Source of the DNA: Candidatus Omnitrophota bacterium
GTDB taxonomy: Bacteria > Omnitrophota > Gorgyraeia > 2-01-FULL-45-10
DNA length: 64,000 bases
Direction: 5' to 3'
Assembly: GCA_026387175.1 (NCBI GenBank)
Contig: JAPLME010000008.1
Coordinates: 149,883-213,882, forward strand
Positions 1 to 62,220 of the stretch are shown piece after piece. The translations under genes were made by a program, and so were the position numbers. How positions within the stretch are numbered: the stretch's first letter is position 1; every line of letters begins with the position of its first letter. The notes under the pieces are model-generated. The model saw only the letters and a list, made by a program, of their open reading frames with translations. It was not told where the DNA came from and did not search any database.

Positions 1-245
1 CGACCGCGCTCGACGTCACCATACAGGCTCAAATTTTAGATCTGCTCAAGGAGCTTATAGATCGGAATAAGATGTCGGTCCTGTTTATAAGCCATGATTT
101 CGGAGTCATCGCGAAGATGTGCGACCGTGTCGGTGTCATGTATAAGGGAAAGATGGTTGAGACATCCGGCATAGAGGCGATATTAAATTCTCCCAAAGAT
201 CCTTACACTATCTCGTTAATAGAATCGGTGAAGGCGTTATCATGA
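1..245 (+). CDS. ABC transporter ATP-binding protein, C-terminal fragment (oligopeptide/dipeptide OppD/DppD-like); 5' end lies outside the window
   Basis: Frame-3 translation ...SVLFISHDFGVIAKMCDRVGVMYKGKMVETSGIEAILNSPKDPYTISLIESVKALS* matches the C-terminal region of Opp/Dpp ATPases. It overlaps the next ATPase gene by ATGA. Confidence 0.7.
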   Translation, partial: TALDVTIQAQILDLLKELIDRNKMSVLFISHDFGVIAKMCDRVGVMYKGKMVETSGIEAILNSPKDPYTISLIESVKALS

Positions 246-1018
246 TAATCGCGGAATGTAAGAATATAAAGAAGAGTTTTCCGATAAAACGCGGTTATCT
301 GCAGGATGAGATTGGCAGGGTGACGGCTGTAGATGGCGTATCGCTCGATATCGGGAAAGGATGTTCTTTCGGCATCGTCGGCGAATCGGGCTCGGGCAAG
401 ACTACGCTCGGCAAGATCATGCTGGGTGTTTTAAAACCTGATTCAGGCGAAGTGAGGGTCTATACCGATAAACTTCAGGTGATATTTCAGGATCCGTACA
501 ATAGTCTCGATCCTAAGATGAAGGTATTCGATATACTTGCGGAAGGACTGATCTTAAAAAAAGAGACTGATCAAATATCAAAGAGGGTAGAGGATATCAT
601 GGACATCATAAAGTTGCCAAAGCCCGCCCTCCATAGATATCCCCACCAGTTTTCCGGCGGTGAACGTCAGAGGATAGCTATAGGAAGAGCTCTCATTACA
701 GAGCCTGAATTCATAGTATGCGATGAGCCTGTATCGAGCCTTGACGTTACGATCCAGCTGCAGATATTAAGGCTGCTTAAAGACGTTCAGAAACGATTTA
801 ATATAACCTACCTATTCATAAGCCATGACCTGCGGGTCGTGCGCTTCATCTGCGACCGCGTTGCCGTCATGAAAGACGGCAAGATTGTAGAAGAGGGAAG
901 CGCCTCCGACATATATTCCCGCCCGGCGCACCCATACACTAAGCTGCTCCTCTCATCCGTTCTCCACATCTACCCCCGAAAAATCTCCTGGGGAAACGTG
1001 GGCGAAAATATCGTATAG
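242..1018 (+). CDS. ABC transporter ATP-binding protein (OppF/DppF-like)
   Basis: Walker A GESGSGKTT, signature FSGGERQRIAIGRAL, Walker B FIVCDEPVSSLD, H-loop SHD. The last codons (GENIV*) coincide with the outer TIR of a Y-type repeat. Confidence 0.85.
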   Translation: MIIAECKNIKKSFPIKRGYLQDEIGRVTAVDGVSLDIGKGCSFGIVGESGSGKTTLGKIMLGVLKPDSGEVRVYTDKLQVIFQDPYNSLDPKMKVFDILAEGLILKKETDQISKRVEDIMDIIKLPKPALHRYPHQFSGGERQRIAIGRALITEPEFIVCDEPVSSLDVTIQLQILRLLKDVQKRFNITYLFISHDLRVVRFICDRVAVMKDGKIVEEGSASDIYSRPAHPYTKLLLSSVLHIYPRKISWGNVGENIV

Positions 1019-1300
1019 GTGATGCCCCAGACGAGATCCTTCAGGCAGCGGAACTTCTGCGGGAAGCCTGGAGCGACTTTCGTAAAATCTTGATACTTCT
1101 AGGCGATATACCAGGACAATGAAACTGCACAATAGCTTTACGCATATGCAGGTTCATTGGCCATCAAGATTTTACAACAGCGAATTTACATGCCTAATGT
1201 AAATTCGCGACAAGCGGAAGGCTTACCGCAGAAGTTTCGCTGCTGTAGGAGAAGCGAAGGGACAGGGCCCGAGGGATGTTTTCGCTCTTGATTAGCGGGG
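1007..1300 (+). repeat. Y-type structured palindromic repeat, copy Y1 (type-1 long variant)
   Basis: Outer TIR GGCGAAAATATC (1007) pairs with GGATGTTTTCGC (~1270). Nested TIR GCAGCGGAACTTCTGCGGGAAGCC (1046) pairs with GGCTTACCGCAGAAGTTTCGCTGC (1220-1243). Internal hairpins GTAAAATCTTGAT...ATCAAGATTTTAC and GCGAATTTACAT-gcct-ATGTAAATTCGC (1180-1208). Near-identical to 24383-24657. Confidence 0.6.
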
Positions 1301-1330
1301 GAGTCTGCATTATAATTAGGGCCATAATTT

Positions 1331-2011
1331 ATGAATACCGCCAAGAAGATAATTACAATATCTAAACTGTTAAAGAAGGCCTATGGGAATCCGAGGCCAT
1401 TCAAGGCCCTGGATCCTGTCGATGAGCTGATAAAGACGGTCCTTTCGCAGAATACGAATGACCGGAATTCGCTTGGCGCGTTTGCGGTTTTGAAGGAACA
1501 TTTCAGTTCCTGGGGCGCATTGATGAAGGCCGATACGCGGCACGTCGCTCGGCTCATAAAGCATGCCGGACTTGCAAATATCAAGGCCGCTCGCATAAAA
1601 GAGATCCTGGCCGAGATAAAACGCCGCGAGGGAAAAATAAGCCTGGCGTTTTTGGAAAGGGCAGATCTCAAAGTTGGTATTGAATACCTTAAATCGCTTA
1701 AAGGCGTTGGCCCGAAAACGGCGGCATGTGTGCTGCTATTCAGTTTTCGTAGGCCCGTGATGCCGGTAGATACGCATATATTCAGGGTGACAAAGAGGCT
1801 GGGTTTAATCGGCTCGAAGACCGGTATAGAGGAAGCTCACGATATCCTTACAGGGATGACGCCTAAGCACTTGATATATGAATTGCATTTAGGTATAATA
1901 GAACACGGTCGCAGGACCTGTAAGGCGCAAAATCCGCGATGCGGGTTTTGCGTTTTGTATAATCTGTGCAAATTCAAGGATAAGCGTTTATATAAAGAGG
2001 GCCATAAGTGA
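1331..2011 (+). CDS. nth: endonuclease III (HhH-GPD DNA glycosylase with C-terminal 4Fe-4S cluster)
   Basis: HhH motif LKSLKGVGPKTAACVLLF, catalytic region PVDTHIFRV, and cluster motif CKAQNPRCGFCVLYNLC. Confidence 0.85.
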   Translation: MNTAKKIITISKLLKKAYGNPRPFKALDPVDELIKTVLSQNTNDRNSLGAFAVLKEHFSSWGALMKADTRHVARLIKHAGLANIKAARIKEILAEIKRREGKISLAFLERADLKVGIEYLKSLKGVGPKTAACVLLFSFRRPVMPVDTHIFRVTKRLGLIGSKTGIEEAHDILTGMTPKHLIYELHLGIIEHGRRTCKAQNPRCGFCVLYNLCKFKDKRLYKEGHK

Positions 2012-2463: not shown

Positions 2464-3738
2464 ATGGGTCACACGATAACGGAAAAGATCCTCTTAAAAC
2501 ATACCAAATTGAAGGATATCCACCCAGGGGAATTTATCGACGCGAAAGTCGATCTCTGTCTGGGTAACGATATAACCGCGCCTTTTGCGATAGAGGAGTT
2601 TGAGAGCTTAGGCGCGAAGAAGGTTTTCGATAAGAAGAAGGTTGTGCTCGTCCCCGATCATTTTGCGCCCGCTAAAGATATGGCGAGCGCGAACCAGTGC
2701 AAGAGGCTGGCTACTTTTTCCAAGAAGTACGATATAAAGCACTATTTCGAGGTGGGATCGATGGGCGTTGAACACGCGCTTCTGCCTGAGGTCGGACTGG
2801 TGTTGCCCGGAGATCTCGTGATAGGCGCGGATTCACATACTTGCACCTACGGCGCGCTCGGCGCGTTCTCGACCGGAGTCGGCTCGACGGATCTTGCGGC
2901 TGCCATGGCGACGGGCGAGGTATGGCTGAAAGTGCCGGAGTCGATGAAGTTCGTATTTTATGGAAAGCTCAATAAATGGGTGGGCGGCAAGGACCTGATC
3001 CTGCATACTATAGGGAACATAGGCGTTGACGGCGCGCGTTATTGCGCGATGGAGTTTTGCGGAGAGGTGATCGATAAACTGCCTATGGAGGACCGTCTGA
3101 CTATGTGTAATATGGCGATCGAGGCCGGCGGAAAGAATGGGATAATCGCTCCGGACAAGATAACGTCCGGCTATATAAGATCGATAAAGAATAAGGCTAA
3201 GCCGGGTATCGGTAAAGTTTACTCAAGCGATAAAGACGCAAAATATCGCGATGTCAGGGAATATGATTGCAGCTTGATCGAACCGCTCGTCGCATGTCCG
3301 AGCCTTCCCAGCAATGTGAAGCCGGTCAGGGCACTGAAAGATGTGGCGATAGATCAGGTAGTGATAGGCTCATGCACTAACGGCAGGATATCGGACCTGA
3401 GGATCGCGGCAAAGATCCTGAAAGGAAAAAAGGCGAAATCTAATATAAGGCTTATAGTGATCCCGGCCACCCAGAAGATATATCTGGACGCGATGAAGGA
3501 AGGGCTTGCTAAGATATTCATTGACGCAGGAGGCGTATTCTCGACCCCGACATGCGGGCCATGCCTCGGAGGTCATATGGGCATATTGGCGGCGGGAGAG
3601 CGCGCCATATCCACCACGAACCGTAATTTTGTCGGAAGGATGGGTGATCCGACGAGTGAGGTATATCTGTCCAATCCGGCTGTGGCAGCCGCAAGCGCGG
3701 TAAAAGGCAGGATAGCCCACCCTGAAGAGGTGATATAA
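2464..3738 (+). CDS. leuC: 3-isopropylmalate dehydratase large subunit (aconitase family, short LeuC/HACN-type)
   Basis: 424 aa with aconitase-family Cys ligand region ([18 protein letters not shown]). Followed by the small subunit and the dehydrogenase. Confidence 0.8.
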
Positions 3739-6302: not shown

Positions 6303-6480
6303 GATGGATTTTTTGGCTTCGTCAGATGGCAGAACTTTTTGGCACCTTACTGGAGCGACTTTCTAAAATTTCGATACCTATAGGCGGTACAGGCTTCACC
6401 ATCGAAATTTTAGCAACAGCGAGCGAGGAAGCCTATTCCGAGCGAGCGGCAAGCGGAAGCAGGTGCCAAAAGTGAATGCC
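6303..6480 (+). repeat. Y-type repeat, truncated copy Y4 (short variant)
   Basis: CAGATGGCAGAACTTTTTGGCACC...AAAATTTCGATACCTATAGGCGGTACAGGC...ATCGAAATTTTA...GAGCGAGCGGCAAGCGGAAGCAGGTGCCAAAAGT. Outer arms TTTTGGCACCT/AGGTGCCAAAA are complementary. Homologous to 15625-15780. Confidence 0.5.
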
Positions 6481-6511
6481 ATCACGTTGCAGCCAAAAAA
6501 TCAAACGAGAT

Positions 6512-7249
6512 ATGCGTAACATAAAGCTCACTATCCGCTACGACGGGACGAACTATTCCGGATGGCAGTTCCAGAAGAACTCCACATCTATCCAGGAGAC
6601 CATCCAGGATGCGGTCAGGAAGATCACGGGCCGCAAGTCCAGCGTCGTCGCATCCGGCAGGACCGACGCCGGCGTGCATGCATTGGCCCAGATAGCGAAC
6701 TTCAAGACCGCCTCGAAGATCCCTCTCAAAAATCTGCGTATGGCGTTAAATACAGCCCTGCCGGACGACATAGTAGTATCCCGGGCCAAAGAGGTTGCTC
6801 TCGACTTCGATTCGCAAAAGAACGCCAAATCAAAGTTGTATCGTTATGTGATCTATAACAAAGATTTCATGGACCCGTTCTTAAGACGTTACGCCGCGAA
6901 GTCTTTTTTCAAAATCGATACCGCTCTAATGAGAGAGGGTGCGAAATATCTGGTCGGCCGGCATGACTTTACGTCGTTCAAAACGAAGGACGATGATGAG
7001 GGGGCCAACGCGGTCAGGACGATAAAGTATATTAGAATTAAAAGAGACGGCGATGTGATATATATCAATATCGAGGCCGACGGATTTTTGTATAACATGG
7101 TCCGGAACATCGTCGGCACATTGATCGAGGTCGGTCGCGGTAAATTTAAGACCGAATATGTTAAAGAGATACTGAAAAAGAAGGATAAGCGCTCATGCGG
7201 CCCGACAGCGCCGGCAAAGGGCCTCTCGTTGGTAAAGGTAAGGTATTGA
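6512..7249 (+). CDS. truA: tRNA pseudouridine(38-40) synthase
   Basis: MRNIKLTIRYDGTNYSGWQFQ and RTDAGVHA catalytic Asp motif. The ORF-track start at 6476 lies inside the repeat, so the start was moved to ATG 6512. Confidence 0.85.
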   Translation: MRNIKLTIRYDGTNYSGWQFQKNSTSIQETIQDAVRKITGRKSSVVASGRTDAGVHALAQIANFKTASKIPLKNLRMALNTALPDDIVVSRAKEVALDFDSQKNAKSKLYRYVIYNKDFMDPFLRRYAAKSFFKIDTALMREGAKYLVGRHDFTSFKTKDDDEGANAVRTIKYIRIKRDGDVIYINIEADGFLYNMVRNIVGTLIEVGRGKFKTEYVKEILKKKDKRSCGPTAPAKGLSLVKVRY

Positions 7250-13304: not shown

Positions 13305-13308
13305 GAAG

Positions 13309-13445
13309 GGGTCTTCGGGGTGGGGTGACCTGCATTGGCGGGAATTCCCCGGCCGGCGGTAAAGCCCGCGAGTCCCTGTGTCCGAGGGGCAGAACTTGTG
13401 AGATTCAAGTGCCGACAGTACAGACTGGATGGTAGAAGACGCCTC
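13309..13445 (+). ncRNA. FMN riboswitch (RFN element) aptamer
   Basis: Conserved RFN blocks are present: CTTCGGGGTGGGGTGA...GGGAATTCC...GGCGGTAAAGCCCGCGAG...CCGAGGGGCAGA...GAGATTCAAGTGCCGACAGTACAGACTGGATGGTAGAAGA. It sits in the ribBA leader. Confidence 0.85.
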
Positions 13446-14802: not shown

Positions 14803-15267
14803 ATGGTAAATGTGATAAAGGCGGATTTGGTTGCAAAGGGGAAGAAGTTCGCGATAACCATATCGCGGTTCAACGAGTTTATATCATCGAAGCTTCTTGA
14901 GGGATGCATCGACACACTTAATCGTCATGGTGTCCAGGAGAATTCGATAGATGTGGTGTGGGTGCCGGGGGCATTCGAAATACCGATGATCGCGCAAAAG
15001 TGCGCGAAGTCAAAAAAGTACGACGCGGTTATATGCCTAGGTACGGTCATAAGAGGCGCGACGCCTCATTTTGAGTTTGTGGCGAGCGAGGCCGCCAAAG
15101 GTGTCGCGAAGATATCGCTCGATACTAATGTGCCGTGCATATTCGGCATCATCACAGCCGATAATATCGAGCAGGCGATCGAGAGGGCTGGCACGAAGGA
15201 CGGCAACAAGGGCCGCGACGCGGCGCTCTCGGCCATCGAGATGGCTAATCTGTACGCGAAGCTATAG
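14803..15267 (+). CDS. ribH: 6,7-dimethyl-8-ribityllumazine synthase
   Basis: 154 aa with the lumazine synthase signature VPGAFEIP. Confidence 0.9.
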
Positions 15268-15850
15268 ATTTTTCGGCTGCAAGCGATAGTCTAGAGCCTT
15301 CGGGCACTTGCTTTCGCTTGTTGCGGTTTATCCCTCGCGGGGCGGTGCTTCGCAGGGACGCGAAATTTCCCCTGCGAGGAAATTTCGCTCGGAAAGATCG
15401 CTCGCTCTTTTTGGCATACAGGTATACCAGGGCCAAAAATCCGTGCCCGCTCGCGACTTTCGACGCCCTGCTTAGCACCGCCCCCGCGAGGGATAACTGA
15501 GTAACGAAGAAGATAGTGCCCAAAAGCTCCCTGCACTATGCAAGGAGCCGAAAAAATTACTGGGGGTAGTGAGCAGAGAGTGAGATTGTAACAGTGAACG
15601 GAGGCGAAAATATCCTTCAGTACGTCAGATGGCGGAACTTTTGGGCGATGCTGAAGCGACTTTATAAAATTTCGATACCTATAGGCGGTACAGGCTTTAT
15701 CATCGAAATTTTATCAAGAGCGAGCGAGGAAGCCTATTCCGAGCGAGCGGCAAGCGGAAGCATTGACCGAAAGTAAACGCCGGACTGAGATGTTTCTAGG
15801 ATATTTTCGCTGTAGTGAGGATATTTTCAGTGCGAACCATAACTTCGGTT
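15268..15850 (+). repeat. composite structured repeat: X-type palindrome (X1, ~15268-15570), linker, Y-type element (Y3, ~15603-15850)
   Basis: X1 has an 18-29 bp TIR GGTTTATCCCTCGCGGGGCGGTGC/GCACCGCCCCCGCGAGGGATAAC around the core palindrome GCGAAATTTCC-cctgcga-GGAAATTTCGC. Y3 has outer TIR GGCGAAAATATCC (15603) pairing with GGATATTTTCGC (15810) and a nested hairpin AAAATTTCGATA...TATCGAAATTTT. Homologous to 24094-24657. Confidence 0.6.
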
Positions 15851-15912
15851 TAGGTCCAAACTGGAATTTGAAGGATGCTGTTGCCGTAGTTGCAAATGAA
15901 TGAGGAGGGAAG

Positions 15913-16332
15913 ATGAGGAAGCGAACAGTCGCGAGAGAATCTGCGCTTAAGATACTATATGCGGTCGATATTACGAAAGAAGCGCCGGACAAATGCATAG
16001 ATAATTTTTGGTTGTCGCAGGATAAAGTGGAAAAAGAGGTGATGAGTTACGCTAACGATATTGTCCTTGGCGTCTGCCATAATAAAGCGCGTATCGATAA
16101 GGTGGTATCGGAATGCGCGACGAATTGGGAGCTCGACAGGATGGCGGTTATAGACCGCAATATACTACGATTAGGTACGTACGAGCTTATATTTATGGAA
16201 GAGGTCCCGCCGAAGGTCGCCATCAATGAAGCGATCGATATCGCAAAGAGATACGGCGATAAAGACTCCGGAAAATTCGTGAACGGTGTGCTCGACAAGA
16301 TCAGTAAGGAAAAGAGAAAACCGTCCGAATGA
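15913..16332 (+). CDS. nusB: transcription antitermination factor NusB
   Basis: 139 aa with typical NusB fold residues (ARESALKILYAVD, DRNILRLGTYEL). Confidence 0.85.
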   Translation: MRKRTVARESALKILYAVDITKEAPDKCIDNFWLSQDKVEKEVMSYANDIVLGVCHNKARIDKVVSECATNWELDRMAVIDRNILRLGTYELIFMEEVPPKVAINEAIDIAKRYGDKDSGKFVNGVLDKISKEKRKPSE

Positions 16333-19481: not shown

Positions 19482-19558
19482 CGGGGCGTAGCGCAGCTGG
19501 CTAGCGCGCTTGGTTCGGGACCAAGAGGTCGGCGGTTCAAATCCGCCCGCCCCGACCA
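19482..19558 (+). tRNA. tRNA-Pro (anticodon CGG)
   Basis: Cloverleaf folds. Acceptor CGGGGCG/CGCCCCG, D-arm GCGC-AGCTGGCTA-GCGC, anticodon stem CTTGG/CCAAG with loop TTCGGGA, T-arm GGCGG-TTCAAAT-CCGCC, and encoded CCA. Confidence 0.9.
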
Positions 19559-23202: not shown

Positions 23203-24089
23203 AGACATTAGTGGATGAATTTTTAAATTATCTTACGGTCGAAAGGGGCCTTAGCAAGAATACTATATCCGCTTACGGGACGGATCTCAATCATTTTACG
23301 GAGCATCTCGGGGCGCATGGTATCAGCGATCCCGATCATGTGAAGAGGCAGGATATCATGGATTATATGCTGAAGCTCAAAGACAACAAGATATCGAGCA
23401 ATTCCATATCCAGGGCGCTTGTGGCGATAAAGATGTTCTATAAATTCCTGGTGAGGGAACGATTGGCAAAAGACGATGTCGCCGGAGTCCTGGAATCGCC
23501 AAAACTTGTACGGCCCTTACCCAATGTCATGGGAATGCAGGAGGTTGAAAAACTGTTGGCCGCCCCCGACGTGCGGGGATGGATGGGTATAAGGGACAGG
23601 GCGGCGCTTGAACTCATGTACGCGACCGGGATGAGAGTTTCGGAGCTTGTCGATCTCACTATGGATGGCCTGAATTTAGACGTGGGATTTATAAAATGCC
23701 GGGGGAAAGGTGATAAGGAACGCATTGTGCCTATCGGCAAAAGCGCGAAGGAAGCGATCGAGAGGTATCTCGATAAAGTACGTCCGAAACTCCAGAAGAA
23801 GGACGCCCAGGACCAGCACCTCTTTTTGTCAAGGCTCGGCAAGAAGGTCTCGAGGGTATCGTTCTGGAAGATGATAAAAACAAATGTGAAGCTTGCCCGC
23901 ATAAAGAAAGATGTGACGCCGCATACTCTCAGGCACTCATTTGCTACGCACTTATTGGAGCGCGGGGCGGATCTGCGCGTCGTCCAGGAGATGCTTGGAC
24001 ATGCGGATATATCGACGACTCAGGTATATACGCATATAAATAAAGAGCGGCTGAAGTTAATACACAGGCAATTTCATCCGCGGGCGTAA
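23199..24089 (+). CDS. tyrosine recombinase XerC/XerD family
   Basis: 296 aa. N-terminal SAM-like domain and C-terminal catalytic RHSFATHLL...LGHADISTTQVYTHI (R-H-R-Y). Confidence 0.8.
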   Translation: MKTLVDEFLNYLTVERGLSKNTISAYGTDLNHFTEHLGAHGISDPDHVKRQDIMDYMLKLKDNKISSNSISRALVAIKMFYKFLVRERLAKDDVAGVLESPKLVRPLPNVMGMQEVEKLLAAPDVRGWMGIRDRAALELMYATGMRVSELVDLTMDGLNLDVGFIKCRGKGDKERIVPIGKSAKEAIERYLDKVRPKLQKKDAQDQHLFLSRLGKKVSRVSFWKMIKTNVKLARIKKDVTPHTLRHSFATHLLERGADLRVVQEMLGHADISTTQVYTHINKERLKLIHRQFHPRA

Positions 24090-24093
24090 ATTT

Positions 24094-24657
24094 TTCGGAT
24101 TCTATAGTTTGTCCCTTGCGTGTGGGTGCTTCGCGGGGACGCGAAATTTCCCCTGCGAGGAAATTTCGCTCGGAAAGATCGCTCGCTCTTTTTGGCAAGT
24201 AAGCGTACCAGGGCCAAAAATCCATGCCCGCTCGCGACTTTCGACGCCCCGCTCAACACCCACACGCAAGGGACTGCTGAGTAGTCCGAAAAATTTACTG
24301 ACAGGGTGAGTAGAGAGTGAGATTGGGATGGTGAGCGGAGGCGAAAATATCGCATGATGGATGGCGCCCCAGGTGATATCCTCAGGCAGCGGAACTTCTG
24401 CGGGAAGCCTGGAGCGACTTTCGTAAAATCTTGATACCTATAGGCGATATACCAGGACAATGAAACTGCGCGACAGTTTTTTACGTATAGGCAGGTTCAT
24501 TGGCCATCAAGATTTTACAACAGCGAATTTACATGCCTAATGTAAATCTGCGACAAGCGGAAGGCTTACCGCAGAAGTTTCGATGCTGTAGGAGAAATGA
24601 AGGGGGCGAGCCCCTGAGGATATTTTCGCCGTAGTGAGGATAGACGTAACTTCGGAA
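24094..24657 (+). repeat. composite structured repeat: X-type palindrome (X2, ~24094-24300), linker, Y-type element (Y2, ~24344-24657)
   Basis: X2 has an 18-bp perfect TIR GTCCCTTGCGTGTGGGTG (24111) pairing with CACCCACACGCAAGGGAC (24257) around the same core as X1. Y2 is near-identical to Y1 (1044-1250). Confidence 0.6.
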
Positions 24658-44065: not shown

Positions 44066-45640
44066 TTAAATTCCATTACGCGACGCAAGTATCGCGTTTG
44101 ATATATCGGAGCTCCTTAGAACTCGCAGATCATATTTTTTTATGATCTCCTTGTCAGGCTCGAGCAGATAGTAGAAATCATATATTCCGTCAGGGCCCTG
44201 CCGGGTCGTGAAATCGATCCAGTACGTCTTATCCTTTATTATATAGTAGTTCGTTGCGGGTTCAAAAAGCCAGTTGATGCCTATCCTGTATTTATTTCCT
44301 CCGGGTATATTATTTTTTGTCAGGTCGTAGATCTTCCGCATGACGTTCTTTGTGTCGGCATCATATTTCCATATGTGAAAATGGGTGATATTCATACATA
44401 AAATTCCGTGCAGGACCGCTGCTGAAATAATTACAAAAAAGAACCCGTTCATTATCGCCCTCCAAGCGCTATGGGCGGAGGAAGAGAGAGAGGACCAAAA
44501 AGATATCACGAGCACTAAATAGAGCGGGACCAGGTATATGGCCGCTCTATCAATAGCGTATTTTATATGGAAGAATGTAAATTGAATATTCATCGAAACG
44601 ATTATCAGCAACAGGAGCATCGCGAGCCATAATGTATTCGTGTTATTCTTGTTACCTGGGCGCCCATTGATACCTATCGATATCGCGACGATGAGAGCTA
44701 TGACATATAGCATAAATATGATGATTTTTATGACATGCAGCGCTTCCGGCCCTGCATAGCTTTTACCGTAGAGGACGCACTCCAGGACTGTGGTCACAGT
44801 GTTTGCCCAGAAGCCTGTTGTGCCGCCATAATCTGTGATAAAAAGCTTGATCCTGTCCATGACGGGAGCGCTGTAAATAAAACGCAATACTATCAGGATG
44901 CACGCGGCTGGAATCAGGAATCCCATGGCCAGTGTTTTGAAGGCTTTGACCATGGAGTTTTTCGCCGCGCGAATCATTTCATATATTTCGGATATGCCGA
45001 TTAACGCCATTATCGCGAATAGGACATTCGCAAAAGCCAGGTTTGATAACACGGAAAACCCGAGCATGGACAGGGTTAAGATATTGCAGCGAGGACGCAG
45101 GCTATCGCAAGCGTAATTTCTTTTCAAGAAAAAGTATAGGCCGAACATCAGGAAGCCGACCCCCAGAGCGTATCCCCTGGCGCAGGAAAAGAAGTCCAGT
45201 AAAAACGGGTTTGTCGTCAGCAGCAAAAATCCGAGCAGGTACTTGGCTTTTTTAAAAAAAAGGTCAAGTATTTTGAGAGACGCGACCAGGTAAAGGATAT
45301 GTCCGATCAGCGCCGGGATCCTGATAACAAATTCATTGTTCCCGAGCACTTCGCAGAAGAATTTAATGAATAACGTATTGAGCAGATGATTATTCGAACT
45401 GATAGCTCCCGCGTGTAAGAATATGTTTCGTATGCTTCCCTGCGCATGAATGAGATAGGTGAGCGCTTCATCGTGGCTTATCGATATGACGCCTGCTCGA
45501 AAGCATGTATAGCAGAAAAGCGCGCAGGCAATTATGAATGCCGTGAATTGATACCGGTCGGCGTTGTACCAAGGGCCGGGCCGGATGCCGGACATAGATT
45601 CATCTACGGTTTTTTGTACGGCGTGTTTCTTTCTTTTCAT
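44066..45640 (-). CDS. polytopic membrane protein, putative GT-C-fold glycosyltransferase (PMT/ArnT-like)
   Basis: About 10 predicted TM helices and an early-loop DE motif (SHDEALTYL). A C-terminal soluble domain. Confidence 0.45.
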   Translation of the reverse strand: MKRKKHAVQKTVDESMSGIRPGPWYNADRYQFTAFIIACALFCYTCFRAGVISISHDEALTYLIHAQGSIRNIFLHAGAISSNNHLLNTLFIKFFCEVLGNNEFVIRIPALIGHILYLVASLKILDLFFKKAKYLLGFLLLTTNPFLLDFFSCARGYALGVGFLMFGLYFFLKRNYACDSLRPRCNILTLSMLGFSVLSNLAFANVLFAIMALIGISEIYEMIRAAKNSMVKAFKTLAMGFLIPAACILIVLRFIYSAPVMDRIKLFITDYGGTTGFWANTVTTVLECVLYGKSYAGPEALHVIKIIIFMLYVIALIVAISIGINGRPGNKNNTNTLWLAMLLLLIIVSMNIQFTFFHIKYAIDRAAIYLVPLYLVLVISFWSSLSSSAHSAWRAIMNGFFFVIISAAVLHGILCMNITHFHIWKYDADTKNVMRKIYDLTKNNIPGGNKYRIGINWLFEPATNYYIIKDKTYWIDFTTRQGPDGIYDFYYLLEPDKEIIKKYDLRVLRSSDISNAILASRNGI

Positions 45641-47075
45641 CTTTCCCTTCTAATATAGGATGTATGATCTCTCCCGGCGGCGAGACCATCATGAAGTAGA
45701 TAAAAATAATAGTCGGCCATAGCTGCAGGACCAGGCGGTTTAAGGTGGTGCCTATATGCCACTTGAGATCGTATGGGCTAGTAAGATATATTGCGCAGTA
45801 ACCGGTAAGCATAATTAATACCGCGAGTATCGATATAAGAACCGCTGTCCGGTCTTCCTTTCTGATCGATATGCCGGCAAGGAATAAATATACTAAAAGG
45901 ACGGGGACCGCGCCTGTGAAGAGAAACCCGAGCCGGAAAAATTCGTTAGTGAACCCCGATATTATAAAGTAATACCTGGACGGGTCGGCCAGTTTTTCTG
46001 CCCAGTGCCCGGATATTTGGGCCGCCAGAATATCTTTGTTGGGCGGCGCCAGGAAGAGCTTGAAATATATGATAATTAAAAGGATAGGACTTGAGCCGGC
46101 GAGAAACGCCGCCATTTGCCGTAAGCTCCCGCGGATGCCGATGATCGGAACGGTCACGAAGATACGGGAAATAATGACTGCCGCTAAAAAGAACAGGCCC
46201 TCGTTTTTTGTCCAGGCTGCGAATGCCGTTATTAAGCCGGCGAGCACCAGGAATCCATTATTTTTGCCGGGCAGTCTCTCATTGAGGTATAAGATAACGA
46301 TACTCGCTAAGATAAAAAATGATAGCGGCACATCGGCGTATTGAGACGCTCCATGCAGGATGAATGACGGTGTGCCCAATAAGATGAAAGCGCCTAAGAG
46401 GCCCTGTTCTCTCCCCCGCAAGAGGGAGAGCGACGATTTCAATAGCCCGATAGTGGCAAATGTGAAGACCAGCGCGATAGCGGCCGGTGCGAGAGTCTGA
46501 CATTTACCCATATAGGCCCAGCTCCTGGCTATCATACCTGGCAGCAGAAGAGGGTAATCCGGGTTTGTCCAGCTTATGACATTGGTAAAGGCATCTTTCC
46601 AGGCGGCCAGTCCACGGAAAATGAACCGTGCCCTCATGTTCCATATGGCCCATGCGTCCCATCCACCATGCGGCTGGCAAGCCGATTTTGATATGAAGGA
46701 AGATATCGCGAATGCGGTTGCGCACAAAAACGCCGCTGTTAGAACATAATAGACCCTATTGGAAAAGATCTGGTTTTCGGCCCTCCGCAGCATCAGGCAT
46801 TCTTGAGCCTCCTGTTTTAACGCGCCGAATAATACCGCTCCCAGCGCGGCGCACAGCAGCAGTTCCGCGATTACGAACGACGCAAAACCAAACCGGTAAG
46901 CGCTCATAACGAGCCATAAAAAGAATAGGGATGAGGATATTCCTATTCCTATGCCTACCGCAAGGGCTAGCTTGAGAGACAGGTTAGTTATCAGCGGTTT
47001 TCGGCAGGGCCAGGCGATGAATACCAGCAGAAGCCCCATTGCCAGCGATATTATTAGTGACGCAAAAAGTATCAT
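45600..47075 (-). CDS. polytopic membrane protein (possible GT-C-like glycosyltransferase)
   Basis: Many hydrophobic segments and a Lys/Arg-rich C-terminal tail. In tandem with the preceding membrane protein. Confidence 0.4.
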   Translation of the reverse strand: MILFASLIISLAMGLLLVFIAWPCRKPLITNLSLKLALAVGIGIGISSSLFFLWLVMSAYRFGFASFVIAELLLCAALGAVLFGALKQEAQECLMLRRAENQIFSNRVYYVLTAAFLCATAFAISSFISKSACQPHGGWDAWAIWNMRARFIFRGLAAWKDAFTNVISWTNPDYPLLLPGMIARSWAYMGKCQTLAPAAIALVFTFATIGLLKSSLSLLRGREQGLLGAFILLGTPSFILHGASQYADVPLSFFILASIVILYLNERLPGKNNGFLVLAGLITAFAAWTKNEGLFFLAAVIISRIFVTVPIIGIRGSLRQMAAFLAGSSPILLIIIYFKLFLAPPNKDILAAQISGHWAEKLADPSRYYFIISGFTNEFFRLGFLFTGAVPVLLVYLFLAGISIRKEDRTAVLISILAVLIMLTGYCAIYLTSPYDLKWHIGTTLNRLVLQLWPTIIFIYFMMVSPPGEIIHPILEGKDEKKETRRTKNRR

Positions 47076-47509
47076 GAGGGCGCATCCTCATTACGTAACA
47101 AAAAGACGCCGTTTCCGGCATTCATGATAACGCTGAATCTGCCATATGCGCTTATATCTGGAAGCGCGGAGGAGTGAAAATTGCCTATCACGATACCTCT
47201 GCGGGGATTATTATCAACTACGACCGGAGCGACGGCATACTGTGTCAGATAATATTCCGCCTGAAGATTGCCGTAAGCCATGACGGCTTCCGGGGGAGCT
47301 TCCGTAATATACCCTACTGCGCCCCGGGCCGGTAACGCCGCCCTGACCGCGGCAAAGCGTTCTTCGTATTGAGTGATTTGATCGCGAGGGCCTGTATTAA
47401 TCCGCTCGTTTCCGGTTTTTGTGAACAACTCGGCGCAGGTAATAAGAGAGAGGATGATAATGATAAAAATTCCGGCTTTAAGTGGCGCGAACCTCATTGT
47501 ATATCCCAT
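47072..47509 (-). CDS. hypothetical membrane-anchored/exported protein
   Basis: N-terminal hydrophobic anchor GIFIIIILSLITCAELF. Overlaps the upstream gene by 4 nt. Confidence 0.35.
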   Translation of the reverse strand: MGYTMRFAPLKAGIFIIIILSLITCAELFTKTGNERINTGPRDQITQYEERFAAVRAALPARGAVGYITEAPPEAVMAYGNLQAEYYLTQYAVAPVVVDNNPRRGIVIGNFHSSALPDISAYGRFSVIMNAGNGVFLLRNEDAPS

Positions 47510-61357: not shown

Positions 61358-61930
61358 ATGCGCGCTTTTATAGCGATCGAAATATCGGATGAGATTAAAG
61401 ATGCGCTTGCCCGGATAGAATCCCACCTTAAATATGCCGGCGCAGACGTCAAATGGGTCAATCCGAAGATCATCCATCTCACTTTAAAATTCATGGGCGA
61501 GATTAACGATAATAAATGTGAGGTCGTAAAGTCCGCGTTGGATGCTATTGCAAAAAGCGCGAAGTCCTTTGAGGTGACAGTAAAAGATGTCGGAACTTTT
61601 CCGAATAGCGCTCGTCCGCGGGTTATCTGGTTAGGCCTCGACAAGGGGGCTTCCGAATCGGTTGAGCTCGCAAAGCGTATAGAGGAGTCGCTATCTAAAA
61701 TAGGATTTCCCGCAGAGAATAGGCCCTTCAGCCCTCATCTGACAATAGGCCGTGTCCGCTCATCGCTCAATATCGAAAAGCTTAAAGAGAAGATATCCTC
61801 AGCATCATTAGAGATCCAGCCCGGCGGTACCATTTCACAAAAAGTCACTTCCATAATCCTCTTCCAGAGCACCCTCACTCCTCAGGGCCCCATCTACACC
61901 AAGCTCCACGAAGCTCCGCTCGAAGCGTAG
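61358..61930 (+). CDS. thpR: RNA 2',3'-cyclic phosphodiesterase (2H family, LigT/ThpR)
   Basis: Two HxT/S motifs, HLTLKF and HLTIGR. Confidence 0.8.
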   Translation: MRAFIAIEISDEIKDALARIESHLKYAGADVKWVNPKIIHLTLKFMGEINDNKCEVVKSALDAIAKSAKSFEVTVKDVGTFPNSARPRVIWLGLDKGASESVELAKRIEESLSKIGFPAENRPFSPHLTIGRVRSSLNIEKLKEKISSASLEIQPGGTISQKVTSIILFQSTLTPQGPIYTKLHEAPLEA

Positions 61931-62220
61931 GTGAAAATATTCCTGGTGGATATATCTGATGGCGGAACTTTCGGCTCGATGCTGGAATAATTGCAGTCAT
62001 TTTACGGGTGACGCAAGATCCAGCCTTGAGGGGCGCAGCGTAGGATGGGTTCAATATAGCTACCCGCCTGGATGGACTGATATTGTAAACCCTACGCAAG
62101 CACCGAAAGGCGATCTTGCGGCAGGACCCGTAAAATGATGCTGTTCAGCGGAAGCATTGACCGAAAGTAAACGCCGGACTGAAGATTCCGATATAATATT
62201 TTCGCCGTAGTGAGGAACTA
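61931..62220 (+). repeat. Y-type structured repeat, copy Y5 (variant with nested hairpins)
   Basis: Outer TIR GGTGAAAATATTCC pairs with AATATTTTCGCC. Nested TIR GGCGGAACTTTCGGCTC pairs with GACCGAAAGTAAACGCC. Inner hairpins TCATTTTACGGGT...ACCCGTAAAATGA, CGCAAGATC...GATCTTGCG and GCGTAGGATGGGTT...AACCCTACGC. 3' tail GTAGTGAGGA. Confidence 0.55.

Follow-up and report, generated by a model that had tools for sequence, protein, structure and literature searches.

Small palindromic repeats that supply the C-terminal residues and the stop codon of a protein are already known from Coxiella, Neisseria, Rickettsia and enterobacteria. At enhC of Coxiella burnetii, the open reading frame (ORF) of one strain extends into the element QMITE2 by 33 residues; a second strain has, owing to an indel, a stop codon immediately ahead of the same element (PMC5896051). 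Fusions to ORF ends have likewise been documented for the 107-bp form of the Correia element, for ERIC, YPAL and RU-3, and for the Rickettsia element RPE (PMC2229807). Here we analysed a stretch of 64,000 nucleotides (nt) from contig JAPLME010000008.1 of a Candidatus Omnitrophota bacterium (the window; positions count from its first nucleotide), in which the ORF of an ATP-binding cassette (ABC) ATPase runs into a palindromic repeat, Y1. A preliminary description of the stretch had proposed that the repeat supplies the last codons and the stop of this gene. This was borne out, as the left arm of Y1 is read in frame as G-E-N-I and the TAG that ends the ORF lies within Y1.

The ORF (242-1018, plus strand) encodes a protein of 258 amino acids (aa), an extension of 11 residues included, in which Pfam finds ABC_tran (PF00005, 2e-25) and oligo_HPY (PF08352, 2.9e-08). 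The predicted product has the features of OppF/DppF-type oligopeptide ABC transporter ATPases, and its gene is the last of an opp-type operon, with SBP_bac_5, two permeases and another ATPase upstream (seen in L123; loci outside the window carry L numbers). The ORF ends in AAC GTG GGC GAA AAT ATC GTA TAG. The last seven of these codons had been quoted correctly and placed at 1004-1021; they occupy 998-1018. The protein thus ends in ...VLHIYPRK followed by ISWGNVGENIV. Two types of palindromic repeat, X and Y, contribute to this end, the parts of which are as follows.

971-982, plus strand: last orthologue-like codons, TAC CCC CGA AAA (Y-P-R-K); orthologues have their stop codon here.
976-984, plus strand: CCGAAAAAT, apparent remnant of an X-type right terminal inverted repeat, overlapping the P-R-K-I codons.
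983-1015, plus strand: lineage-specific extension of 11 codons, ISWGNVGENIV, present in 0/120 homologues and identical in five independent contigs.
985-1000, plus strand: linker CTCCTGGGGAAACGTG, homologous to the non-coding linker between X right end and Y left arm.
1001-1285, plus strand: Y1, a palindromic non-coding repeat of 285 nt, 88% identical to its closest paralogue, Y3.
1001-1012, plus strand: left terminal inverted repeat of Y1, the 12-mer GGCGAAAATATC, in frame as G-E-N-I.
1016-1018, plus strand: the TAG that now ends the ATPase ORF, nucleotides 16-18 of Y1.
1041-1250, plus strand: three-way-junction core of Y1 (covariance model R1, 237 bits; the stems covary).
1274-1285, plus strand: right arm of Y1, GGATGTTTTCGC, whose last 7-9 nt are conserved sequence just 5′ of the nth promoter.
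1288-1316, plus strand: sigma-70-type promoter of nth, TTGATT-17 nt-TATAAT (10/12 matches), starting 3 nt after Y1.
1331-2011, plus strand: nth (endonuclease III), the downstream gene.

We compared this C-terminus with those of the 120 best ATPase homologues, the named ones being Candidatus Omnitrophota. Most are 242-251 aa long, and nearly all end in ...HPYTKLLLSSILDIYP plus 0-2 residues, typically K or R; the common form, found in most of them, is ...LLSSILDIYP[KR][KR] before the stop. The closest homologues (86-90% identity) terminate in YPKG, YPRR, YPQK or YPRA. Repeat-less orthologues that still end in GENIV, which the preliminary description had named as evidence for coincidence or capture, did not occur (0/120). 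The 11 residues and the stop are therefore specific to this lineage, and the replaced part is not just the five or so residues first suggested: alignment with the orthologues places it at 983-1015. The added residues lie outside the conserved domain and are probably neutral, their translation being assumed from the ORF.

The identical junction between gene and repeat was present in five Logan contigs from five separate sequencing runs, all of which stop within Y1; samples containing the strain are SRR25046533 and ERR15302175/182/214/223. The junction is therefore real and no assembly artefact, and Y1 is repetitive enough to break assemblies; breaking off inside Y1 is the behaviour expected of a multicopy repeat. 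Across many samples, short-read contig ends fall within X or Y elements just 3′ of oppF, namely in L123-L127, L002, L209, L210, L128 and L217. This poses a practical problem, in that the elements systematically break short-read Omnitrophota assemblies at gene ends and yield spurious or altered ORF calls.

Y1 and Y3 (24340-24629) align at 88% identity over 291 columns (E about 1e-100). The arms of Y1 are 261 nt apart, matching at 10 of the 11 comparable positions of the left-arm reverse complement, in agreement with the partner arm that had been described about 260 bp downstream, just before nth. The folded stretch 995-1300 has a minimum free energy of -132 kcal/mol (z -11.2). GTA TAG, the valine codon and the stop, are nucleotides 13-18 of Y1; at the position equivalent to the TAG, and in the same frame, Y3 has TGA, and neither Y2 nor the copy in L128 has an early stop. 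A target-site duplication, for which a check had been recommended, was sought around Y1 and not found (flanks ACGTG and TCTTG). On the right, the nth promoter is conserved in L208, L211 and L213 and recognisable in L130, and the sequence (T)TTTCGC(C/T)CTTGATTAGCGGGGGAGTCTGCATTATAAT, which contains it, is conserved in the window and in the same three loci. Part of the partner arm, TTTTCGC (1279-1285), belongs to this promoter-proximal sequence and is kept even in relatives that have no Y1-like arm adjoining it. The end of the right arm thus coincides with promoter-proximal sequence.

Allowing at most one mismatch, we found six sites of the left-arm 12-mer in the window where 0.83 would be expected; 0/100 shuffles reached six. 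The sites (1001 plus, 15603 plus, 15800 minus, 24340 plus, 24619 minus and 62195 minus) pair up, so the 12-mer represents the arms of further copies (15603/15800 and 24340/24619). The right arm of another copy, 61930-62206, is also among the six sites, and its left arm, GGTGAAAATATT, is a variant with two mismatches. All Y copies fold as long hairpins (z -6 to -11 against shuffles). The statement that Y2 and Y3 begin with the same 12-mer was right for Y2, which has GGAGGCGAAAATATCC; Y3 reads GGAGGCGAAAATATCG and not the sequence quoted for it. Both do lie in non-coding contexts, as had been noted. The window holds five copies with a Y core and two X copies; besides Y1 they are the following.

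6307-6502, plus strand: a Y core of type B enclosed by X-type arms, GATTTTTTGGCT / AGCCAAAAAATC, between asd and truA, starting 4 nt after the asd stop.
15265-15559, plus strand: X2, X-type palindromic element with arm TAGATTTTTCGGCT.
15603-15811, plus strand: Y2, in the spacer between ribH and nusB, with arms of the Y type and a core (type B) that is shorter.
24086-24298, plus strand: X3, X-type palindromic element with perfect 14-nt arms GTAAATTTTTCGGA / TCCGAAAAATTTAC.
24340-24630, plus strand: Y3, with perfect 12-nt arms (12/12), in the non-coding spacer downstream of xerD.
61930-62206, plus strand: Y-type copy between ligT and recA, arms GGTGAAAATATT / AATATTTTCGCC.

The X and Y units measure 196-294 nt, and the ORFs they contain are short, none being conserved between copies. 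X-type or Y-type arms enclose exchangeable cores: the asd-truA element combines X arms with a core of the Y2 type, and in L211 and L209 cores are reversed. Between ligT and recA, the window (61928-62206) and L214 (3070-3290) share the stop-codon arm GCG TAG-G(T/C)GAAAATATT and differ in their cores, which seem to have been swapped inside fixed arms; L216 has a small X-like element (3070-3135) at this spot instead.

Element starts recur 0-6 nt after stop codons. The arm of X3 contains the xerD TAA (24087-24089), and XerD keeps its canonical end HPRA; the arm of X2 begins with the ribH TAG (15265-15267), and RibH also keeps its canonical end. At ligT (TAG at 61928-61930), the third base of the stop is the first G of the 61930 copy. 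We considered whether this copy has rewritten the LigT C-terminus and rejected the idea, as the orthologues have the same length (190 aa commonest) and the same ...KLHE-x-x-x-x end. At xerD, ribH and ligT, then, the element adjoins the ancestral stop and the protein is unchanged; the ATPase, whose stop was lost, is the exception. X2, X3, the 61930 copy, L214 and L216 have TA on both flanks, suggesting a TA target duplication that would regenerate TAA or TAG. Several loci share the sequence outside the Y arms, RCGKR to the left and GTAGTGAGGA to the right, so the true ends are uncertain and the TA duplication is unproven.

The DNA just 5′ of the Y1 arm resembles repeat sequence as well. The arms of the X family are (G/A)ATTTTTCGG...CCGAAAAAT. 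ATTTTT[CT]GG occurs at six sites in the 64 kb, five of them X-type arms (6308, 6492, 15268, 24090 and 24285); the sixth, 976 on the minus strand, is the complement of CCGAAAAAT and the only site outside such arms. The order in the ATPase tail, CCGAAAAAT-CTCCTGGGG-AAACGTG-GGCGAAAATATC, matches the composites between ribH and nusB and 3′ of xerD, where the stop codon is followed by X, a linker (T)ACTG(G)GGG..., the Y arm, Y and GTAGTGAGGA. For the linker we compared 15558-15602 and 24297-24339 of the window, CCTGGGGAGCGAGTGAA in L128 and 1170-1183 of L211; at 15560, in the ATPase tail and in L128, the Y arm is preceded by a linker of the CTGGGG type. The orthologous spacer of L211 has GTTGAAAAATCTTCTAGAAGAGCGGA-GGCGAAAATATC, the first part being the right arm of its X-like element. 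Window positions 978-1012 align with L211 1161-1195 without gaps, 26/35 positions being identical and GAAAAATCT standing equally distant from the Y arm. Judged by sequence comparison, the 25 nt 5′ of the Y1 arm (976-1000) are repeat-derived, and the linker is non-coding at the other copies and at the orthologous locus.

In relatives, repeats of both types follow the same gene. Our metagenome search with the ATPase was dominated by distant Opp ATPases, the useful loci being L128, L129 and L130. L128 (ATPase 81% identical) has CCTGGGGAGCGAGTGAA-GGCGAAAATATC about 125 nt 3′ of an intact TAA. L211 (nth 86% identical) reads YP-TGA, followed by an X-like element that encloses a reversed Y1-type core, the linker, a Y-type element with another core, 21 nt, and TTTTCGCC-CTTGATT. 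It has two copies of TTTTCGCC, 21 nt apart, and the window has one, suggesting that the window lineage lost the DNA between two such copies by a small deletion. L217 (80% identity) has a different tail of 7 aa and a Y-like arm before the contig breaks. In L208 (89% identity) the left arm of an X element, GATTTTTCAG, directly follows TGA; the left half of this X joins a right end of the Y2 type, with its tail, across a 9-nt overlap, and the same nth promoter comes next. In L209, L210 and L002, TGA or TAG is followed directly by (G)ATTTTTCGGC, an X-type arm, where the contigs break. No clean empty orthologous site was recovered, and the orthologous spacers differ in the element or core that they hold. 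Since X and Y elements occur in several relatives, the spacer was occupied before these lineages split, and the tail of the ATPase has been altered more than once. The Y-type elements of L128, L211 and L217 stand behind an intact stop; most likely, therefore, it was the loss of its stop that let the gene run into repeats already resident there.

At L001 (ATPase 90% identical; 6700-6800), where another gene lies downstream, a small hairpin, AAAAGGG...CCCTTTT, overlaps the private tail of the ATPase, LDIPKGGTSLF and stop. Here the end of this gene seems to have been remodelled a second time and independently.

We thus favour, with a probability of roughly 0.6, the reading that the stop codon and the adjoining X hairpin were lost by a small deletion, leaving an ORF that runs through resident repeats into Y1. 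The ancestor would have had a canonical stop, an abutting X-type hairpin, the linker, a Y-type hairpin and the nth promoter, an order still present at ribH-nusB and xerD in the window and at the ATPase locus of the relatives. One small deletion would have taken the stop codon together with the X hairpin, most plausibly by slipped mispairing of CCGAAAA in the last codons (CCC CGA AAA) with CCGAAAAAT of the X right arm. The ORF would thereby have come into frame with the linker and Y1, to be translated to the first in-frame TAG. At present, ...IYPRK is followed by 11 codons that pass through the X right-arm remnant (976-984), the 16-nt linker and the first 18 nt of Y1. Palindromes are classically excised by slippage between short direct repeats that flank the hairpin. 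In the L208 lineage, a separate deletion may have joined the centre of X to the Y right arm across the similar motifs GGAAATTTCGC and GGATATTTTCGC; this fusion and the doubled TTTTCGCC of L211 indicate that deletion between similar motifs occurs at the locus. Some observations weigh against our reading. In L211 the Y-type arms enclose another core, and the core of the Y1 type lies in reverse within the neighbouring X-like arms, which requires further rearrangement or gene conversion from a copy like Y3. No relative was found that is close enough to represent the immediate precursor (tail codons, stop and intact X), and the deletion is a reconstruction. Finally, P-R-K codons could read CCC CGA AAA through chance, and some of the 9 nt shared with the X arm may thus be a coincidence.

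The preliminary description had offered insertion into the gene's 3′ end, or capture of the gene end as a terminal repeat. The Y-type element, or a composite of X remnant, linker and Y, might indeed have transposed directly into the ATPase and replaced its stop. Y1 has terminal repeats that pair and a paralogue nearly identical to it, the tail is missing from the orthologues, and mobile repeats fused to the 3′ ends of ORFs are well documented (PMC2229807; PMC5896051); moreover, X, linker and Y stand in this order at three loci, so the composite could be the mobile unit. Yet Y1 has no target-site duplication, the 25 nt before its arm are repeat-derived and match the DNA 5′ of the Y arm in L211, Y-type elements stand here behind an intact stop in four lineages, and the right arm merges into conserved promoter-proximal sequence. 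We therefore regard direct insertion as unlikely: the repeat-encoded terminus stands, and a fresh insertion of Y is, given the resident repeats and the repeat-derived DNA upstream, the poorer account. That the arm originated from the gene's own 3′ end, resembles it by chance or reflects an assembly artefact is scarcely credible. Nothing speaks for this beyond a 12-mer in frame at the end of a gene. The 12-mer is absent from the orthologous gene ends and present at non-coding copies, homology to Y3 spans 285 nt, the junction is common to five independent assemblies, and shuffles never reach the 12-mer count.

A further possibility is that the elements are functional structured RNAs (stabilisers of the 3′ untranslated region, processing sites or insulators, located behind stop codons) and not mobile DNA, the overlap with the ORF being a by-product of selection that holds the RNA close to the end of the gene. 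We aligned the core of six copies (window 1041-1250, 24382-24593, 15625-15790 and 6322-6490; L211 942-1150, minus strand; L214 3096-3261). In this alignment 95% of the cells are paired, and 19/42 pairs show compensatory changes, as against 1-5 with slid partners. Shuffles never reached the observed value on four of five whole-structure measures; on the fifth, the occurrence of further standard pair types, the count was no higher than in shuffles (243/500). The loop GCCTA and the unpaired strands of the junction, CTGGAGCGAC and CAAGCGGAAG, are constant, and a covarying three-way junction with invariant unpaired bases is unusual for a plain inverted-repeat element. A covarying core with conserved unpaired strands is what a structured RNA would have; the repeated starts 0-6 nt after stop codons and the orientation of the five window copies (5/5 like the flanking genes) also agree with it, although nearly all window genes are on the plus strand, so that the orientation bias is confounded. 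Against an RNA role, folding is about as good on one strand as on the other and involves few G-U pairs, cores in L211 and L209 run opposite to the genes, different cores occupy the same arms at orthologous sites, no Rfam family matches, and REPINs, which are palindromic DNA repeats, likewise show compensatory change. On balance we find this explanation quite improbable. Strand asymmetry as a test of RNA versus DNA was judged uninformative, the differences being small and confounded by GC skew.

Searches beyond the locus returned little. The covariance model R1 added no copy to those known and had no match in 0.6 Mb of unrelated DNA. Rfam 15 contains no family for the elements, and at permissive settings 940-1340 and 15200-15950 matched hairpins by chance only (E at least 0.13). 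The Rfam matches in the window were a flavin mononucleotide (FMN) riboswitch (90 bits; 13307-13444, 5′ of the rib genes) and a tRNA gene (19482-19555), both ordinary and both elsewhere. Among the 20 window proteins scanned we found neither a transposase nor a RAYT-like gene. Three consecutive ORFs (524, 491 and 145 aa; 44066-47509, minus strand) without a Pfam match lie in an otherwise plus-strand housekeeping region. The right-end 21-mer ATRTTTTCGCYGTAGTGAGGA had 0 matches in metagenome contigs and the related 21-mer ATATTTTCGCYGTAGTGAGGA 0 in viral contigs; the exact ends are therefore not conserved outside the lineage, or not assembled. A scan of genome contigs with the 16-mer CGKRGGCGAAAATATC was too unspecific, the 120 matches listed being chance matches in unrelated taxa, and these loci were kept as negative controls. 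A literature search for Omnitrophota and palindromic repeats yielded nothing relevant.

From these properties we infer that X and Y are lineage-specific, non-coding mosaic repeats of nested palindromes in short spacers behind the stop codons of housekeeping genes, forming an apparently undescribed family. Their features fit palindromic mobile repeats at the DNA level, of the type of miniature inverted-repeat transposable elements (MITEs) or of REPINs, and the conserved unpaired bases would still allow a role for an RNA or for a protein specific for the structure. It is a doubtful, more speculative idea that X and Y, instead of being ordinary inverted-repeat MITEs, form a class of structured elements that is new, with a conserved three-way junction, covarying stems and invariant unpaired nucleotides. 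Such elements would be recognised in the form of single-stranded DNA or RNA and would dock specifically at stop codons, their terminal TA(A/G) or TAG serving as the stop of the host gene. If so, insertion would be harmless, because the stop is regenerated, and loss or rearrangement of an element would occasionally rewrite a C-terminus, as at the ATPase. Elements abut stop codons at ribH, xerD and ligT, and in several lineages at oppF; this recurrence and the covarying core could make a genome-wide study worthwhile.

Among known systems, REP, BIME and REPIN elements are extragenic palindromes just 3′ of genes, REP units being about 20-40 nt long and REPINs about 100 nt; Bertels and Rainey reportedly described them in 2011 together with RAYT transposases. 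X and Y resemble them in being mosaics of a few motif types, in hairpins kept by compensatory change and in a GTAG near the hairpin. Unlike them, X and Y are 200-290 nt long and have GTAG only after the right arm and in direct orientation, whereas in REP it stands 5′ of each inverted unit; they do not belong to the REP/REPIN-RAYT system. Liang, Rudd and Deutscher are said to have found in 2015 that Escherichia coli REP within 15 nt of a stop codon impedes termination and lowers protein output. X and Y share with such REP a hairpin right after or overlapping the stop, the effect itself being a functional one found by experiment in E. coli.

The likeness to Correia/NEMIS, ERIC, RUP, YPAL and RPE (PMC2229807) extends to a non-coding unit of 100-300 nt with terminal inverted repeats that folds end to end into a stem-loop, often has TA termini, is mostly intergenic and is occasionally fused in frame to ORFs. 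The small non-coding unit, terminal inverted repeats and dispersed copies are those of MITEs. Compared with these classical repeats, X and Y are longer and strongly mosaic, with flippable cores and a three-way junction in place of a simple stem; no partner transposase is known for them, and the TA duplication is only suggested. They are not Correia/NEMIS elements, which are defined by a terminal repeat of 24-26 nt, a TA duplication and a Neisseria host: the arms GGCGAAAATATC and GATTTTTCGGC are unrelated to the Correia repeat, and the host is an Omnitrophota bacterium.

The closest parallel is QMITE2 at enhC, where a small hairpin repeat at the 3′ end of a gene likewise provides C-terminal residues. 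The two elements share no sequence similarity and come from different phyla, QMITE2 has direct repeats of 7-11 nt and Y1 has none, and the ATPase tail is a patchwork of two element types and a linker. The ATPase tail offers a clear, checkable example of how hairpin repeats packed at gene ends remodel the C-termini of proteins, from an uncultivated phylum in which such repeats have not been described. The ATPase case is the same kind of event as those known from other bacteria, with a repeat family and a phylum that are new to it.

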